64,000 bases of DNA, taken from assembly GCF_041886205.1 (NCBI RefSeq), contig NZ_CP169029.1. One strand, 5' to 3'. This document shows positions 4,697 to 42,179 of this stretch, in pieces. Each line of letters starts with the position of its first letter. The first letter of the stretch is position 1. The translations under genes were made by a program, and so were the position numbers. The stretch comes from Escherichia coli (GTDB lineage: Bacteria > Pseudomonadota > Gammaproteobacteria > Enterobacterales > Enterobacteriaceae). The notes under the pieces were generated by a model. It saw only the letters and a list, made by a program, of their open reading frames with translations. It did no database searches and was not told the DNA's origin.

Positions 4697-5254
4697 TTAC
4701 TGAATAACCAGCGTATTAATGATGTTTTCTGCGGTGGTCTGCGCTTTTTGCTGATCGTCAGCTGGCAGAGTAATTTGCATGGTCAGCAGTTGATTACCCA
4801 CGTTACCCAGAATAACGGAAGAGTACGCCGTCTGGCCTTTCGCGGAGATAATACTGTCTAACTGCTGCATTTTGTGACCTTTCAGCTCAATGGCTTTATT
4901 GGTTACCACTTGCAGCTGCGGATCGCGGCTACGTTGCTGATCTTCCAGACGCTTCGCCAGCACCGCCAGATCTTCTTTCGGATCATCGCCCATGATGACG
5001 ATGACTGCTTTCTGCCCGGTGGCGTCGGACCAGACATGCATGTTATTGGCCTGCGTTCCCAGCTTACCGCTCTGGTCGGTCATATCCGCTGGCAGCGAGA
5101 AACTTAACTTGCCATCAAGCAGGTTGACGGGATTCCCGGTAGCGTTACTTTCCGCGACCGAACCCTGCGCCGTAGCGTTAGTGTCTTTATCATCACAGGC
5201 CGCAAGCCCCATAACCAGCAGGCCAATTCCGACATATTTAACCAGATTGCGCAT
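4697..5254 (-). CDS. dcrB: Periplasmic lipoprotein DcrB
   Basis: ORF 4697..5308; internal start [20 protein letters not shown] (lipoprotein signal plus lipobox) gives 185 aa matching remembered DcrB. Confidence 0.85.
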
Positions 5255-5326
5255 TGACTTCTTCCTTTCGATAAACGGCCATAACGGCTCATTCATCCAT
5301 CTTATCACAACTCTGATAACGAACCT

Positions 5327-5992
5327 TTAACTCGCCTGCAAAGCGTTGATTTCGGATTTATCTGCCAGTCTTTTCAACAGCATATTGAGTAATACACCAT
5401 ACATTGGCAGGAAGAAAACGATACTGATTAACACTTTGAAACAGTAATCGACTAGCGCGATTTCCATCCAGTGTTCAGCCATAAAGGCATCCGGGCTACG
5501 CCAGAAGGCAATGAAGAAGAAGGCCAGTGTGTCGCTGACGTTACCGAACAGTGTGGACGCTGTCGGTGCCAGCCACCAGCGGCGACTCTGACGCAGGCGG
5601 TTAAAAACGTGCACGTCGAGGATCTGTCCCAGCGCGTAGGCCATGAAACTGGCGGTGGCGATACGGGCGACAAACAGGTTGAAGTGGGCGAGTGCGCCGA
5701 ATCCCTGCCATGACCCCATATAAAACAGCGATGAGATGACGTAGGAGATCAGCAATGCGGGGATCATCACCGCAAAGATGATACGACGGGCCAGCGGTGC
5801 GCCAAAAATACGCACAGTCAGGTCGGTAGCGAGAAAGATAAACGGAAAGCTAAACGCGCCCCAGGTGGTGTGAAAACCAAAAATGGAGACGGGAAGCTGA
5901 ACCAGATAGTTACTGGAGGTGATCACCAGAAGATGAAATAACGATAACCAGAACAACGCCTTATAGCGTTGAGTTTGCGAGAAAACGTTCAT
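5327..5992 (-). CDS. yhhQ: Queuosine precursor transporter YhhQ
   Basis: 221 aa polytopic membrane protein matching remembered YhhQ. Confidence 0.9.
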   Translation of the reverse strand: MNVFSQTQRYKALFWLSLFHLLVITSSNYLVQLPVSIFGFHTTWGAFSFPFIFLATDLTVRIFGAPLARRIIFAVMIPALLISYVISSLFYMGSWQGFGALAHFNLFVARIATASFMAYALGQILDVHVFNRLRQSRRWWLAPTASTLFGNVSDTLAFFFIAFWRSPDAFMAEHWMEIALVDYCFKVLISIVFFLPMYGVLLNMLLKRLADKSEINALQAS

Positions 5993-35466: not shown

Positions 35467-36807
35467 GTGACTACATTAACGCTTGTTTTAACAGCAGTAG
35501 GGTCTGTTTTACTGCTGCTGTTTTTAGTCATGAAGGCGCGTATGCACGCTTTCCTGGCTTTAATGGTGGTGTCTATGGGGGCTGGCCTTTTTTCCGGTAT
35601 GCCGCTCGATAAAATCGCAGCGACGATGGAAAAAGGGATGGGAGGCACCCTCGGCTTCCTGGCGGTGGTTGTCGCCCTGGGAGCTATGTTTGGCAAGATC
35701 TTACATGAAACCGGCGCAGTCGATCAGATTGCCGTCAAAATGCTCAAATCCTTCGGCCACAGCCGCGCGCATTATGCCATTGGCCTTGCGGGGCTGGTTT
35801 GTGCGCTACCGCTGTTCTTTGAAGTGGCGATTGTTCTGCTGATTAGCGTTGCTTTCTCAATGGCGCGCCACACCGGTACGAACCTGGTGAAGCTGGTAAT
35901 CCCATTATTCGCAGGCGTGGCGGCAGCGGCGGCGTTCCTGGTGCCAGGGCCAGCGCCAATGCTGCTGGCATCGCAGATGAACGCCGATTTTGGCTGGATG
36001 ATCCTGATTGGCCTGTGTGCGGCAATTCCGGGAATGATTATTGCCGGGCCGCTGTGGGGTAACTTCATCAGCCGTTACGTTGAGCTGCATATTCCTGACG
36101 ACATCAGCGAACCGCATCTCGGCGAAGGCAAAATGCCATCTTTCGGATTCAGCCTGTCGCTGATCCTGCTGCCGCTGGTGCTGGTAGGGCTGAAAACCAT
36201 TGCCGCGCGTTTTGTGCCGGAAGGATCAACTGCTTACGAATGGTTTGAGTTTATCGGTCATCCGTTTACCGCGATTCTGGTTGCTTGTCTGGTGGCGATT
36301 TACGGTCTGGCAATGCGTCAGGGCATGCCAAAAGACAAAGTGATGGAGATTTGCGGTCACGCGCTGCAACCGGCGGGGATCATTCTGCTGGTGATTGGTG
36401 CGGGCGGCGTGTTCAAACAGGTGCTGGTTGACTCTGGCGTAGGTCCGGCACTGGGCGAAGCGTTAACCGGCATGGGCCTGCCGATTGCTATCACCTGCTT
36501 CGTGCTGGCCGCTGCAGTGCGCATCATTCAGGGGTCTGCCACCGTAGCCTGTTTAACGGCGGTGGGACTGGTGATGCCAGTCATTGAACAACTGAACTAC
36601 TCTGGTGCGCAAATGGCGGCACTGTCGATTTGTATCGCTGGTGGTTCGATTGTTGTCAGCCACGTTAACGACGCTGGTTTCTGGTTGTTCGGTAAATTTA
36701 CCGGCGCGACCGAAGCCGAAACGCTGAAAACCTGGACCATGATGGAAACCATCCTCGGCACTGTCGGTGCCATCGTTGGGATGATTGCGTTCCAGCTGTT
36801 GAGTTAA
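35467..36807 (+). CDS. gntU: Low-affinity gluconate transporter GntU (GntP family)
   Basis: 446 aa polytopic ORF matching remembered GntU. Confidence 0.93.
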   Translation: MTTLTLVLTAVGSVLLLLFLVMKARMHAFLALMVVSMGAGLFSGMPLDKIAATMEKGMGGTLGFLAVVVALGAMFGKILHETGAVDQIAVKMLKSFGHSRAHYAIGLAGLVCALPLFFEVAIVLLISVAFSMARHTGTNLVKLVIPLFAGVAAAAAFLVPGPAPMLLASQMNADFGWMILIGLCAAIPGMIIAGPLWGNFISRYVELHIPDDISEPHLGEGKMPSFGFSLSLILLPLVLVGLKTIAARFVPEGSTAYEWFEFIGHPFTAILVACLVAIYGLAMRQGMPKDKVMEICGHALQPAGIILLVIGAGGVFKQVLVDSGVGPALGEALTGMGLPIAITCFVLAAAVRIIQGSATVACLTAVGLVMPVIEQLNYSGAQMAALSICIAGGSIVVSHVNDAGFWLFGKFTGATEAETLKTWTMMETILGTVGAIVGMIAFQLLS

Positions 36808-36820
36808 TTACTGCGACAAA

Positions 36821-36852
36821 TTACTGCGAGCTTGCTCGCAGTAATTCATTTC
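36821..36852 (+). terminator. gntU rho-independent terminator
   Basis: Stem ttactgcgag/ctcgcagtaa with loop cttg followed by a T-rich run. Confidence 0.7.
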
Positions 36853-36946
36853 TCTTATCTCCTCTCTTCATCTTTTTGATCCCTCTCGCAAATTTACCTG
36901 CTAATAATCCGTTCTAATCACTGCCTAAAGATCGCAGGAGATAAAG

Positions 36947-39043
36947 ATGGAAAAGCACGGAGCTGAATTGCTTTTACAGCGGATGTTAGGAAATACCACC
37001 GCTACTTTCAGGAAAGGGCAATGGGAAGCCATAGACGCGGTGGTGAACCAACGGCGAAAACTGCTGGTTGTCCAACGCACTGGCAGGGGGAAAAGTGCCG
37101 TGTACTTCATCGCCAGTAAAATCTTCCGCGATCGCGGTGCTGGCCCGACAATTATCATCTCTCCTTTGCTTGCCCTGATGCGTAACCAGGTTGCCGCCGC
37201 TGAACGGTTAGGTATTACGGCTGAAACGTTGAATTCTACAAACAGGGAAGAATGGCAGCGTATTAGCGATAAGTTGCTGCAAGGTGAGGTCGATTGCTTG
37301 CTGGTTTCCCCGGAACGTTTGGCAAACCAGGACTTTATCGAAACGGTTTTATATCCTATAGCCGATCGTATTGGCTTGCTTGTGGTCGACGAGGCGCACT
37401 GCATCTCTGATTGGGGCCACGATTTTCGCCCGGATTACCGACGTATATTAGATATTTTGCGCCAACTGCCTGCGAATATCCCAGTTCTGGGTACAACCGC
37501 GACAGCGAATAACCGTGTCGTTGAGGATATCCGTCAGCAATTGGGTGACATTGTGATTCAGCGTGGAACGCTGGCTCGCGAAAGTTTGGCGCTTGATGCC
37601 TTAGTCTTAGGTGAACAGTCATCCCGTCTGGCATGGTTAGCAACGGTTATCCCTCAGTTTTCCAAATCGGGAATTGTTTATACCCTGACTACTCGCGATG
37701 CCGAACTTGTCGCCGAGTGGTTAAGGACAAATGGTATCAGTGCATTTGCTTACTACAGCGGCGTGACTTGTGAAGGCGCGGAAGATTCTAATACTGCCAG
37801 GGAATATCTGGAGCAGGCGCTGCTGGCAAATAAAATCAAAGTGCTGGTCGCGACGACGGCATTAGGTATGGGGTTTGATAAACCTGATTTAGGTTTCGTC
37901 ATTCATTATCAAATGCCGGGGTCTATTGTCGGTTACTACCAACAGGTAGGGCGTGCCGGGCGTGCTATAGATTCCGCTGTTGGCATATTGCTTTGTGGTG
38001 GTGAAGACCGCGCTATTCATAAATTCTTCCGTGAAAGCGCCTTTCCTGCGGAGGCGCAAATTCATGAAATACTCAACGTACTTAGCGAGAATGACGGTCT
38101 TACCCTACGAGGCATTGAACAACGGACGAATCTCCGTTATGGGCAAATAGAAAAAGCACTGAAATTATTGGTAGCTGAAAATCCATCGCCTGTGGTGTAT
38201 ACCGAGAAATTATGGCGCAGAACTATCGTCAGTTTCTCTCCTGACCATGAACGAATTAACCATTTGATGAATCAGAGAAAAAATGAGCTGGCAGATGTTG
38301 AAAGCTATATCACGACCAAGGAGTGCAAAATGCAATTTCTGCGCCGCGCACTCGATGAGCCAAGTGCCGAACGTTGTGGTAAATGTAGCAGTTGTCTTCA
38401 GCATCCGTTGCTGTCGCCCGATATTGATAGCGGCTTACTCCATGCGGCAAATTTATTTATTAAACACGCTGACCTGCCATTAAATCTCAATAAACAGGTA
38501 GCATCTGGGGCTTTTACGCAATACGGATTTAAAGGGAACTTGCCTGCGGGTTTACAAGGATCTACGGGGCGAGTCCTTTCTCGTTGGGGAGATTCCGGGT
38601 GGGGAAAGCAGGTAGCACAGGAGAAAAAAACGGGGCGATTCAGTGATGAGCTGGTGGAGGCATGTGCGGAAATGGTTCGCCAACGCTGGAATCCGCATCC
38701 TGAACCAACCTGGGTATGCTGCGTTCCTTCATTAAGGCACCTCGACCTGGTTCCTGATTTTGCCCGGCGACTGGCGGCGAAACTTGGCTTACCTTTTATT
38801 GATGCCATTGAAAAAGTCGTGGACAATCCACCGCAGAATATGCAGCAAAACCGTTTTCACCAGTGTCAAAATCTCGACGGGGCGTTTGTGATTACCCCTC
38901 CTTTGATGCCAGGTCCGGCGTTGCTGGTTGACGATATCGTGGATTCTGCATGGACGCTGACAGTTCTGACAGCACTGTTACGCCAGGCAGGTTGCCCGAC
39001 GGTTTATCCTCTTGCCCTTGCTTCTACCTCGGTAAAAAATTGA
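36947..39043 (+). CDS. RecQ-family DEAH-box helicase with zinc-binding motif and C-terminal phosphoribosyltransferase-like (ComF-like) domain; accessory gene absent from the K-12 gntU-yhgN junction
   Basis: 698 aa ORF with strong SD (aggag, 36936..36940). Motifs: Walker A TGRGKSAVY, RecQ-type motif II VVDEAHCISDWGHDFRPDY, TATA motif, helicase-C QQVGRAGR, Cys cluster C..CGKCSSC, C-terminal PRTase-like LLVDDIVDSAWTL. Confidence 0.88.
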   Translation: MEKHGAELLLQRMLGNTTATFRKGQWEAIDAVVNQRRKLLVVQRTGRGKSAVYFIASKIFRDRGAGPTIIISPLLALMRNQVAAAERLGITAETLNSTNREEWQRISDKLLQGEVDCLLVSPERLANQDFIETVLYPIADRIGLLVVDEAHCISDWGHDFRPDYRRILDILRQLPANIPVLGTTATANNRVVEDIRQQLGDIVIQRGTLARESLALDALVLGEQSSRLAWLATVIPQFSKSGIVYTLTTRDAELVAEWLRTNGISAFAYYSGVTCEGAEDSNTAREYLEQALLANKIKVLVATTALGMGFDKPDLGFVIHYQMPGSIVGYYQQVGRAGRAIDSAVGILLCGGEDRAIHKFFRESAFPAEAQIHEILNVLSENDGLTLRGIEQRTNLRYGQIEKALKLLVAENPSPVVYTEKLWRRTIVSFSPDHERINHLMNQRKNELADVESYITTKECKMQFLRRALDEPSAERCGKCSSCLQHPLLSPDIDSGLLHAANLFIKHADLPLNLNKQVASGAFTQYGFKGNLPAGLQGSTGRVLSRWGDSGWGKQVAQEKKTGRFSDELVEACAEMVRQRWNPHPEPTWVCCVPSLRHLDLVPDFARRLAAKLGLPFIDAIEKVVDNPPQNMQQNRFHQCQNLDGAFVITPPLMPGPALLVDDIVDSAWTLTVLTALLRQAGCPTVYPLALASTSVKN

Positions 39044-40245
39044 TGAATCTTTCAGCCAATGCACAAGCGACTCTCCTGCTAACCAGCGATTTTTCTCGCG
39101 CGGCGGCGAGTGAGCATAAACCTCTTAGTAATAGTGAATGGGGGAAGTTTGCATTATGGCTGAAGCACCAACGTATCAGTCCCGCCGAGCTTCTGGTGCC
39201 GCAACCGCAAGAGAAACTTACAGGCTGGAGCGATCCGCGTATTTCTCAGGAGCGTATTCTTGGCTTGCTGGCGCGCGGTCATAGTCTGGCGTTGGCGGTA
39301 GATAAGTGGCAACGCGCCGGTTTATGGATCATAACCCGAGGAGATGCTGATTATCCCGTTCGCTTGAAAAACCGATTGCGAACGGATGCACCTCCCGTTT
39401 TATTTGGCTGCGGGAATAAAGCATTACTGCAAGCGGAAGGTATGGCGATTGTTGGCTCGCGAGATGCTCCGACTGACGATTTGCGCTATACCCAACAACT
39501 GGCCGCGAAACTGGCCCAACAGGGGATTTGCGTTATCTCTGGTGGTGCGCGAGGTATTGATGAATGTGCAATGGCGTCGGCACTGGAGGCCGGGGGAACT
39601 GCCGTTGGCGTATTAGCTGATAGCTTGTTAAAAACGAGTACGTTAGTGAAATGGCGTGAAGGGCTTATAGCAGGCAACCTGGTGTTGATTTCGCCGTTTT
39701 ACCCAGAGGTGCGTTTCACCGTCGGCAATGCGATGGCGCGAAATAAATATATTTATTGCCTTGCTGAAAGCGCAATGGTTGTACGTGCGGGAATGACCGG
39801 TGGAACGATAACCGGGGCGATAGAGGCATTAAAACATCAGTGGCTGCCTGTGCAGGTTAAACCAAATCAGGATATGCAATCAGCCAATTCACGATTAGTA
39901 GAAAATGGGGCGTCATGGAGTGCTGAACAGGCTGAGAATGTGCCGATCAGACTGTCAGACGTTCCTGGGCTGATGTATGACAGAGCACTCCGTAACGCTC
40001 AACCAGAACTGTTTTCGCTGTATGAAGATGACGCAAATTACGCAGTAATGCCCGCGCATACGCCTGTCGATTTTTATCAACTCTTTGTGGCGGAACTGGC
40101 GATCTTTGCAAAGGAATCGATAAGTATTGAAAGGCTGTCGTCTTGTACTGGTTTAACCATCGAACAAATTAGTGTGTGGCTGAACCGCGCAGAAGAAGAG
40201 GGAAGGGTTATCCGATTGGGCGAAGGTCATTATCAGTTCAGGTAA
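39043..40245 (+). CDS. DprA/Smf-like protein (Rossmann/SLOG-fold core with N-terminal extension and C-terminal winged-helix-like tail); accessory
   Basis: ORF track frame 38950..40245; start taken at MNLSANAQ (39043), whose ATG overlaps the upstream TGA stop (TGATG). Core motifs IVGSRDAP, VISGGARGIDECAMASALEAGG and LISPFYPEVRFTVGNAMARN resemble DprA. Confidence 0.85.
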   Translation: MNLSANAQATLLLTSDFSRAAASEHKPLSNSEWGKFALWLKHQRISPAELLVPQPQEKLTGWSDPRISQERILGLLARGHSLALAVDKWQRAGLWIITRGDADYPVRLKNRLRTDAPPVLFGCGNKALLQAEGMAIVGSRDAPTDDLRYTQQLAAKLAQQGICVISGGARGIDECAMASALEAGGTAVGVLADSLLKTSTLVKWREGLIAGNLVLISPFYPEVRFTVGNAMARNKYIYCLAESAMVVRAGMTGGTITGAIEALKHQWLPVQVKPNQDMQSANSRLVENGASWSAEQAENVPIRLSDVPGLMYDRALRNAQPELFSLYEDDANYAVMPAHTPVDFYQLFVAELAIFAKESISIERLSSCTGLTIEQISVWLNRAEEEGRVIRLGEGHYQFR

Positions 40246-40248
40246 TAA

Positions 40249-40284
40249 AACAGGTGCCGCGTCTGGTTGTGTGCAGCACCTGTT
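40249..40284. terminator. Hairpin between the DprA-like gene and convergent yhgN
   Basis: Perfect 9 bp inverted repeat aacaggtgc/gcacctgtt around an 18 nt loop, immediately after the stop at 40245. Confidence 0.5.
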
Positions 40285-40290
40285 TGAACC

Positions 40291-40884
40291 TTACCCCTTC
40301 ATCCACATTCGAATGCCGTCGAGGAACATCTGGGTTGCCATCATCACCAGAATCAATCCCATCAGGCGTTCAAGTGCGTTCACCCCTTTCTCGCCCAGCA
40401 GACGTAAAAATAGCGAAGACTGTAGCAGGATGACAAAGGTGCCGCCCCAGGCCAGCAGCAGAGCAATCACCAGATGTCCCATCTGATTTGGGTACTGATG
40501 AGACAACAACATCAGCGTGGCGAGAATAGTCGGCCCGGCGACTAACGGAATTGCCAACGGCACGATAAATGGCTCTTCACCTGCCGGAAGCCCGCTGCTA
40601 TTTCCTGAAGCGCTGGGGAAAATCATCTTAATGGCGATCAGAAACAGTATGATGCCGCCAGAAATGGAGACGGTTTCTGCTCGCAGGCTAAGAAATGCCA
40701 GAATTTTCTCACCCGCAAACAGGAACACCAGCATCACCAGGAGAGCAATAAGCAACTCTCGCACCATGATTGCCCGCCGTCTTTTCGGTTCAGTATGTTT
40801 CAGTACGGACATGAAAATAGGTAGGTTTCCGAGCGGATCCATAATCAGGATCAATAAAACTGCTGCAGAAATGATTTCATTCAT
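40291..40884 (-). CDS. yhgN: MarC family inner membrane protein YhgN
   Basis: 197 aa polytopic ORF matching remembered YhgN. Confidence 0.9.
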   Translation of the reverse strand: MNEIISAAVLLILIMDPLGNLPIFMSVLKHTEPKRRRAIMVRELLIALLVMLVFLFAGEKILAFLSLRAETVSISGGIILFLIAIKMIFPSASGNSSGLPAGEEPFIVPLAIPLVAGPTILATLMLLSHQYPNQMGHLVIALLLAWGGTFVILLQSSLFLRLLGEKGVNALERLMGLILVMMATQMFLDGIRMWMKG

Positions 40885-41075
40885 AACTCAAATTCCCTGA
40901 TAATTGCCGCGGACTTTCTGCGTGCTAACAAAGCAGGATAAGTCGCATTACTGATGGCTTCGCTATCATTGATTAATTTCACTTGCGACTTTGGCTGCTT
41001 TTTGTATGGTGAAAGATGTGCCAAGAGGAGACCGGCACATTTATACAGCACACATCTTTGCAGGAAAAAACGCTT

Positions 41076-42179
41076 ATGAAAAATGTTGGTTTTATCGGCT
41101 GGCGCGGTATGGTCGGCTCCGTTCTCATGCAACGCATGGTTGAAGAGCGCGACTTCGACGCCATTCGCCCTGTCTTCTTTTCTACTTCTCAGCTTGGTCA
41201 GGCTGCGCCGTCTTTTGGCGGAACCACTGGCACACTTCAGGATGCCTTTGATCTGGAGGCGCTAAAGGCCCTCGATATCATTGTGACCTGTCAGGGCGGC
41301 GATTATACCAACGAAATCTATCCAAAGCTTCGTGAAAGCGGATGGCAAGGTTACTGGATTGACGCAGCATCGTCACTGCGCATGAAAGATGACGCCATCA
41401 TCATTCTTGACCCCGTCAATCAGGACGTCATTACCGACGGATTAAATAATGGCATCAGGACTTTTGTTGGCGGTAACTGTACCGTAAGCCTGATGTTGAT
41501 GTCGTTGGGTGGTTTATTCGCCAATGATCTTGTTGATTGGGTATCCGTTGCAACCTACCAGGCCGCTTCCGGCGGTGGTGCGCGACATATGCGTGAGTTA
41601 TTAACCCAGATGGGCCATCTGTATGGCCATGTGGCAGATGAACTCGCGACCCCGTCCTCTGCTATTCTCGATATCGAACGCAAAGTCACAATCTTAACCC
41701 GTAGCGGTGAGCTGCCGGTGGATAACTTTGGCGTGCCGCTGGCGGGTAGCCTGATTCCGTGGATCGACAAACAGCTCGATAACGGTCAGAGCCGCGAAGA
41801 GTGGAAAGGGCAGGCGGAAACCAACAAGATCCTCAACACATCTTCCGTAATTCCGGTAGATGGTTTATGTGTGCGTGTCGGGGCATTGCGCTGCCACAGC
41901 CAGGCATTCACTATTAAATTGAAAAAAGATGTGTCTATTCCGACCGTCGAAGAACTGCTGGCTGCGCACAATCCGTGGGCGAAAGTCGTTCCGAACGATC
42001 GGGAAATCACTATGCGTGAGCTAACCCCAGCTGCCGTTACCGGCACGCTGACCACGCCGGTAGGCCGCCTGCGTAAGCTGAATATGGGACCAGAGTTCCT
42101 GTCAGCCTTTACCGTGGGCGACCAGCTGCTGTGGGGGGCCGCGGAGCCGCTGCGTCGGATGCTTCGTCAACTGGCGTAA
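41076..42179 (+). CDS. asd: Aspartate-semialdehyde dehydrogenase
   Basis: ORF 41016..42179; start [15 protein letters not shown] (41076) gives the remembered 367 aa protein. Confidence 0.95.

Follow-up and report, generated by a model that had tools for sequence, protein, structure and literature searches.

Stem-loops located between convergent genes of E. coli have been described as bidirectional terminators (Ju et al. 2019, cited via bioRxiv 10.1101/2022.10.23.513370), and such terminators of convergent genes are reported to be unlike intrinsic ones. Separately, rqlH and rqlI of extraintestinal pathogenic E. coli (ExPEC) were found by RT-PCR to be co-transcribed as a two-gene operon and were described as a toxin-antitoxin-like pair (Russell and Mulvey 2015, PMC4670107); a term search of that paper returned no mention of gntU, yhgN or terminators. 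The locus analyzed here, part of a 64,000-nt stretch of E. coli DNA (hereafter the window), has the same gene order and gene overlap as the rqlHI operon of ExPEC strain F11. The present analysis adds the hairpins on either side of the operon and the finding that the empty site is replaced from stop to stop. The hairpin of main interest lies between rqlI and the convergent yhgN gene. In our reading, to which we assign a probability of about 0.7, it would be a 3′-end stem-loop of the cassette version of the locus, of terminator type for the convergent rqlHI and yhgN transcripts. It resembles the bidirectional terminators mentioned above in having one stem-loop within a short spacer. Each transcript would end just past the common hairpin, and the arrangement is repeated in other lineages in which psyrA and yhgN meet.

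Gene content of the locus

The gene order was gntR-gntK-gntU, two extra genes, and yhgN-asd-glgB-glgX (Table 1), and over a 4.6-kb query the window was 100% identical to E. coli strain 6EVA. The two extra genes matched the PADLOC models for PsyrT (E = 0) and PsyrA (E = 2.7e-199). Pfam domains were DEAD, Helicase_C and a weak match to Pribosyltran for psyrT, and DNA_processg_A (DprA family) for psyrA. These matches identify the cassette as rqlH-rqlI, an operon already known from E. coli and also named PsyrTA.

Table 1. Features of the gntU-yhgN region. Coordinates are positions in the window.
Feature	Coordinates	Strand	Description	Basis
gntU	35467..36807	+	left flanking core gene	
Left hairpin	36819..36846	+	AATTACTGCGAGC-TT-GCTCGCAGTAATT, then CATTTCTCTT	terminator scan, locus comparison
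psyrT / rqlH	36947..39043	+	RecQ-like helicase with C-terminal phosphoribosyltransferase domain; toxin	
psyrA / rqlI	38950..40245	+	DprA-like antitoxin, annotated 431 aa	
U-rich tail	40243..40250	-	UUUUAUUA, in yhgN-sense RNA	read from sequence
Stem-loop	40248..40285	no strand	hairpin between psyrA and yhgN	sequence, fold, repeat search
Weak tail	40285..40290	+	UUUGAACC, in psyrA-sense RNA, poor U tract	sequence
yhgN	40291..40884	-	MarC/NAAT family membrane protein, convergent with psyrA	

As annotated, psyrA overlaps psyrT by 94 nt (38950-39045). Its relatives are about 400 aa long, the PADLOC PsyrA model begins at residue 32, and an ATG at 39043 overlaps the psyrT TGA (TGATG). This ATG is likely the true psyrA start, which would give a protein of 400 aa. 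Variation was also seen in psyrT. In strains O55:H7 DEC5B and cattle strain 110, psyrT/rqlH was annotated as a pseudogene with a frameshift and an internal stop (locus-record positions 648-2743 and 648-2772, equivalent to window 36947-39043), and psyrA/rqlI and the hairpin were intact. Besides, the psyrT promoter/leader (36808-36946) was 85% identical to that of an ST131 genome (locus record 509-648), whereas the remaining cassette was 96-98% identical, which suggested that ST131 carries a divergent regulatory allele.

Anatomy of the stem-loop

The psyrA/rqlI stop codon (TAA, 40243-45) is directly followed by a second TAA, and the spacer between it and the yhgN stop (40291-93, TTA on the + strand) is 45 nt long (40246-40290). 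We confirmed the inverted repeat AACAGGTGC (40249-57) and GCACCTGTT (40276-84), which an earlier note on this DNA had reported as a perfect 9-bp match and which can be read directly from the sequence; without mismatch it extends to 10 bp (40248-57 and 40276-85), and it occupies the rqlI-yhgN gap. The spacing given there was also correct, with the first arm beginning at the fourth base past the cassette stop and the yhgN stop at the seventh base past the second arm. A repeat search extended the match to 13 nt at 92% (40248-60 and 40273-85). The single mismatch in this 13-bp stem, C58·A75 on the + strand, corresponds to a G·U pair on the - strand, and the loop ranges from 12 nt in the - strand fold to 18 nt if only the perfect arms are considered. 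From the G+C-rich stem it is 3 nt to the stop of psyrA and 5-6 nt to that of yhgN.

Folding showed an asymmetry between strands. For a 65-nt piece, the energy was -22.7 kcal/mol on the + strand (z-score -3.1) and -26.7 kcal/mol on the - strand (z-score -4.4, with none of 200 shuffles as good). For the 38-nt hairpin alone, the window allele gave -20.4 kcal/mol on the - strand versus -17.8 on the + strand, and the G40276A allele gave -17.9 versus -13.4 kcal/mol. This asymmetry depends on two positions that are G·U on one strand and C·A on the other, whereas possible wobble pairs at 61·72 and 62·71 favour the + strand instead. In yhgN-sense RNA the stem is directly followed by the U-rich tail UUUUAUUA (6 U in 8). 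Its complement on the + strand is the psyrA double stop TAATAA followed by AA. In rqlI-sense RNA the stem is interrupted and the tail UUUGAACC is weak, with the last Us of the stem counted.

Perfect inverted repeats (arms of 10 bp or more, loops of 3-20 nt) were counted in the 64-kb window and in order-1 Markov sequences. The window contained 21 overlapping matches at about 11 places and the Markov mean was 1.5, so that a repeat of at least 10 bp within one 45-nt spacer is not a chance expectation. A palindrome that arose by chance and has no function would agree with the presence of only three alleles within E. coli and with the lack of compensatory change among them. However, we consider it highly improbable, given that a perfect 10-bp repeat in so short a spacer is far above random expectation, that the fold z-scores are low on both strands, and that the hairpin was kept at the junction in divergent lineages despite changes in the surrounding spacer. 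The hairpin is real and non-random.

Other identities were also considered. A simple consensus terminator scan did not call the hairpin site, because it takes only loops of 3-8 nt and the loop here is longer. Rfam 15 covariance models gave no match at E <= 1 within 36500-41100, and no known RNA family was thus recognized. A REP/BIME element or other dispersed repeat was ruled out since the hairpin was found at one place per genome in 1650 of 1650 genomes.

Distribution in E. coli and the empty site

Among 5426 complete E. coli genomes, the 48-nt hairpin segment occurred in 1650, always as a single copy, never on a plasmid, and always at or adjoining the annotation of a DprA-like gene. The whole cassette was present in 1641 of the 5426, and in the others gntU and yhgN are 56 bp apart. 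Two types of this empty spacer were observed, the K-12 type in 3524 genomes and the UTI89 type in 247 more, and together with the hairpin genomes they account for 5421 of the 5426. In C600, UTI89 and an O121 strain, the sequence of the 56-bp spacer was GTTTGTTCGCCCGGTAGTTGTGACGCTACCGGGTTCTTTTCGAAAAACTCTCCTCG or closely similar to it. It contains a single unrelated hairpin, CCCGGTAG-N8-CTACCGGG, followed by the T run TTCTTTTC on the gntU-sense strand, and this hairpin is the predicted gntU terminator of the empty site. No trace of the hairpin under study was found in the cassette-free E. coli loci read (C600, UTI89 and O121). As side observations, gntU of the O121 strain GTVSS-020 was annotated as frameshifted (locus record 1-774), and within the matched region its locus falls 34 nt short of the K-12-type one.

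Homology between cassette-bearing and empty loci ends exactly at the gntU and yhgN stop codons. Between these two codons, 3483 bp stand in place of 56 bp, and nothing of the empty spacer is left. The differences from K-12 closest to the junctions were 133 nt inside gntU and 186 nt inside yhgN, and no excess of SNPs was seen in these parts of the flanking genes. The search for terminal repeats, target duplication at the cassette ends and a recombinase ORF found none. These are exact boundaries for the rqlHI/PsyrTA insertion in E. coli, free of mobile-element hallmarks. Between E. coli lineages the cassette was 96-99% identical and its flanks 97-99%; as the divergence is similar, the cassette is old in E. 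coli. The three hairpin alleles were the window type (649 genomes), G40276A (798 genomes) and the loop change G40261C (178 genomes). All three keep at least 9 perfect pairs, and in G40276A the affected pair becomes C·A, a mismatch, on the + strand but G·U on the - strand.

These observations bear on the origin of the hairpin. The earlier note had considered that it might be native to yhgN, in which case the cassette would have landed precisely between two terminators, i.e., between this pre-existing yhgN terminator and that of gntU. The location of the U tract on the yhgN-sense strand and the better fold of the - strand are what one would expect of a yhgN terminator. However, the hairpin was found only in the 1650 E. 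coli genomes that have it next to the DprA-like gene, the empty spacer has a single, unrelated hairpin and is wholly missing from cassette-bearing genomes, and in other Enterobacteriaceae, with representatives of three other Escherichia species among them, it was not seen 3′ of yhgN in any of 79 cassette-free loci. The comparison with cassette-free genomes proposed in that note therefore removes the native origin, which we regard as scarcely credible. Landing between two native terminators also fails, since the empty site has one hairpin, of which nothing survives, and the two hairpins beside the cassette occur in the cassette version alone. The hairpin is thus cassette-linked and an ordinary feature of that version.

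The empty-site hairpin is similar to the one under study in occupying the same gntU-yhgN gap and in being a terminator-like stem-loop. It differs in its unrelated sequence, in having its T run on the gntU-sense strand and in being confined to cassette-free genomes. The empty-type spacer was common to other Escherichia (representatives of three other species), and Citrobacter and Superficieibacter had a hairpin of the GCCCGGT...ACCGGGC type at this position.

The gntU-yhgN site and the psyrA-yhgN junction in other genera

In 80 enterobacterial loci, yhgN and gntU were separated by between about 35 bp and 2.5 kb. Larger gaps contained a Fic-domain gene with a small partner, HicB-like, RelE/HTH pair and AIM24 genes, a metallophosphoesterase, an outer-membrane beta-barrel protein and a recurrent 148-aa protein without a Pfam match. 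In Enterobacter-like genera, yhgN retains its own terminator, a hairpin with a T run, and the cargo lies beyond it or there is none. Because other genera hold different cargo at this place, the view of the earlier note that the site is permissive is supported in its general sense. An ASCH-DUF4440 protein was also observed as cargo, and cargo began from about position 5595 of the locus records.

The nearest PsyrA relatives outside E. coli (57-72% identity) were all found at the same locus, adjoining gntU. Identity was 72% for an Escherichia-like contig, 65% for a further enterobacterium, 64% for Citrobacter werkmanii, 63% for C. freundii, 61% for Silvania hatchlandensis and 57% for Superficieibacter. 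In every lineage in which psyrA abuts yhgN, a hairpin was present in the 36-45-nt spacer, and in a MAFFT alignment the E. coli hairpin was in register with those of the other genera. Eight core pairs (columns 13-20 and 30-37) were paired in almost all aligned sequences, and one of them was C-G in four sequences and U-A in three. Covariation in this hairpin was not significant when compared with shuffles, and its homology rests on position and core conservation rather than on formal covariation. The outer seven pairs (AAACAGG/CCTGTTT) were found in E. coli only. The U tract was likewise restricted to E. coli; hairpins of Citrobacter, Silvania and other relatives had no U tract on either strand. 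This observation suggested that the conserved feature is the stem-loop and not a canonical terminator. In one cassette-bearing enterobacterial contig yhgN was not called (locus record 5213-5630); there, only a remnant similar to the yhgN 3′ end followed the hairpin, and was itself followed by asd.

Taken by its sequence relationships, the right hairpin is thus a feature of the convergent psyrA-yhgN junction in this cassette lineage. It arrived with the cassette version and evolved within it, the AAACAGG/CCTGTTT extension and the U tract being specific to E. coli.

Termination of the convergent transcripts

The suggestion that the two convergent genes share the hairpin is plausible, and the hairpin fills their stop-to-stop spacer, with the same core recurring at psyrA-yhgN junctions elsewhere. 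We infer from the features above that it very probably functions as a terminator-type stem-loop between these genes, and the best reading is that termination is stronger for yhgN than for rqlI. In yhgN-sense RNA, a 13-bp stem of about -20 kcal/mol with an immediate UUUUAUUA would make up an intrinsic terminator in all but the loop, and yhgN may be terminated in the classical way at the shared stem-loop. For the rqlI-sense transcript the hairpin may be a weak terminator or a site of pausing or polymerase collision, or it may protect the 3′ end of the RNA; a weaker role on this strand is suggested by the weaker stem and the poor tail. Compared with known intrinsic terminators, the similarities are the G+C-rich stem right after the stop codon, the U-rich tail in yhgN-sense RNA and a stem energy of about -18 to -20 kcal/mol. 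The differences are the loop of 12-18 nt versus the usual 3-8 nt, the poor rqlI-sense tail and the lack of a U tract in homologous hairpins of other genera. A literature search for mapped yhgN 3′ ends led to a single paper, on an unrelated topic.

Another possibility is that the stem-loop serves only to stabilise the 3′ end of the RNA or to direct its processing, as a block to exonucleases or as an RNase III target in the overlap of the two transcripts, and that termination occurs elsewhere, by Rho or by collision of polymerases. The tail-less homologous hairpins of other genera and the large loop fit this explanation, as does the reported unlikeness of bidirectional terminators of convergent genes to intrinsic ones (bioRxiv 10.1101/2022.10.23.513370). 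However, the E. coli hairpin has a canonical stem followed by UUUUAUUA on the yhgN strand, and sequence cannot separate such a role from termination. We consider this explanation unlikely and prefer a terminator-type function.

The locus is one more example of a defence or toxin-antitoxin module that lies insulated between core genes in convergent orientation. That the hairpins on both sides are part of the cassette version is of use for annotation and for designing clean deletions of the operon that spare yhgN and gntU termination. The practical value is small, and no new question is opened.

The left junction and the ends of the cassette

The hairpin at the left junction (Table 1) is, as predicted from its sequence, the gntU terminator of the cassette version. 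Its core, CTGCGAG-N4-CTCGCAG, was present after the gntU stop in 10 of 10 other cassette-bearing loci in which the left junction was covered and in none of 83 other loci. Covariation in the left hairpin is clear: both partners were changed in five of its outer pairs, and the observed score was not reached in any of 500 shuffles.

The presence of a cassette-linked hairpin at each end raises the question of whether the two could be remnants of the ends, or recombination sites, of a mobile cassette bounded by hairpins. In Citrobacter loci the hairpin cores are alike, the left GCTGCGAG/CTCGCAGC (locus record 1782-1799) and the right GCTGCGCT/AGCGCAGC (5217-5235) sharing 6 of 8 positions per arm, a likeness which could reflect chance or shared ancestry. 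This, together with the linkage of both hairpins to the cassette, would be in line with mobile ends. On the other hand, the cassette lacks terminal inverted or direct repeats, a target duplication and a recombinase gene, and the hairpin is present in a single copy per genome. Moreover, in Superficieibacter the cassette adjoins gntU with the left hairpin present, while psyrA abuts an AIM24-family gene across a 15-nt spacer and the right hairpin is absent, which is more in line with a function at the junction than with an end of the cassette. Also, neither hairpin motif was found where psyrTA occupies unrelated sites (Providencia, Jejubacter and Phytobacter), and a left-right hairpin pair of this kind was not found at psyrTA loci in other contexts. 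Mobile ends are thus extremely improbable, and a junction stem-loop of terminator type remains our preferred reading of the right hairpin. In Jejubacter calystegiae, the distant psyrTA copy lies between gltA and nei and has its own textbook terminator of unrelated sequence, with an A run and a U run flanking it (AAAAGCGCCCCCGGCGUUUUUUU; locus record 5237-5270).

A more speculative view is that rqlHI/PsyrTA and its two hairpins constitute a stop-to-stop "allele" of the gntU-yhgN spacer, either kept as a presence/absence polymorphism or recombined via the core flanks, across several enterobacterial genera, and that the similar GCTGCG...CGCAGC hairpins are more than terminators, for example insulators needed for a toxic operon to be carried between two core genes, or relics of a cassette once bounded by hairpins. 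We regard this as very unlikely. Finally, an 11-nt direct repeat, AATTACTGCGA, was observed twice at the left junction, at 36806 and 36819, with the first copy overlapping the gntU stop. Either copy can pair with 36836-46, which gives two alternative forms of the left hairpin.
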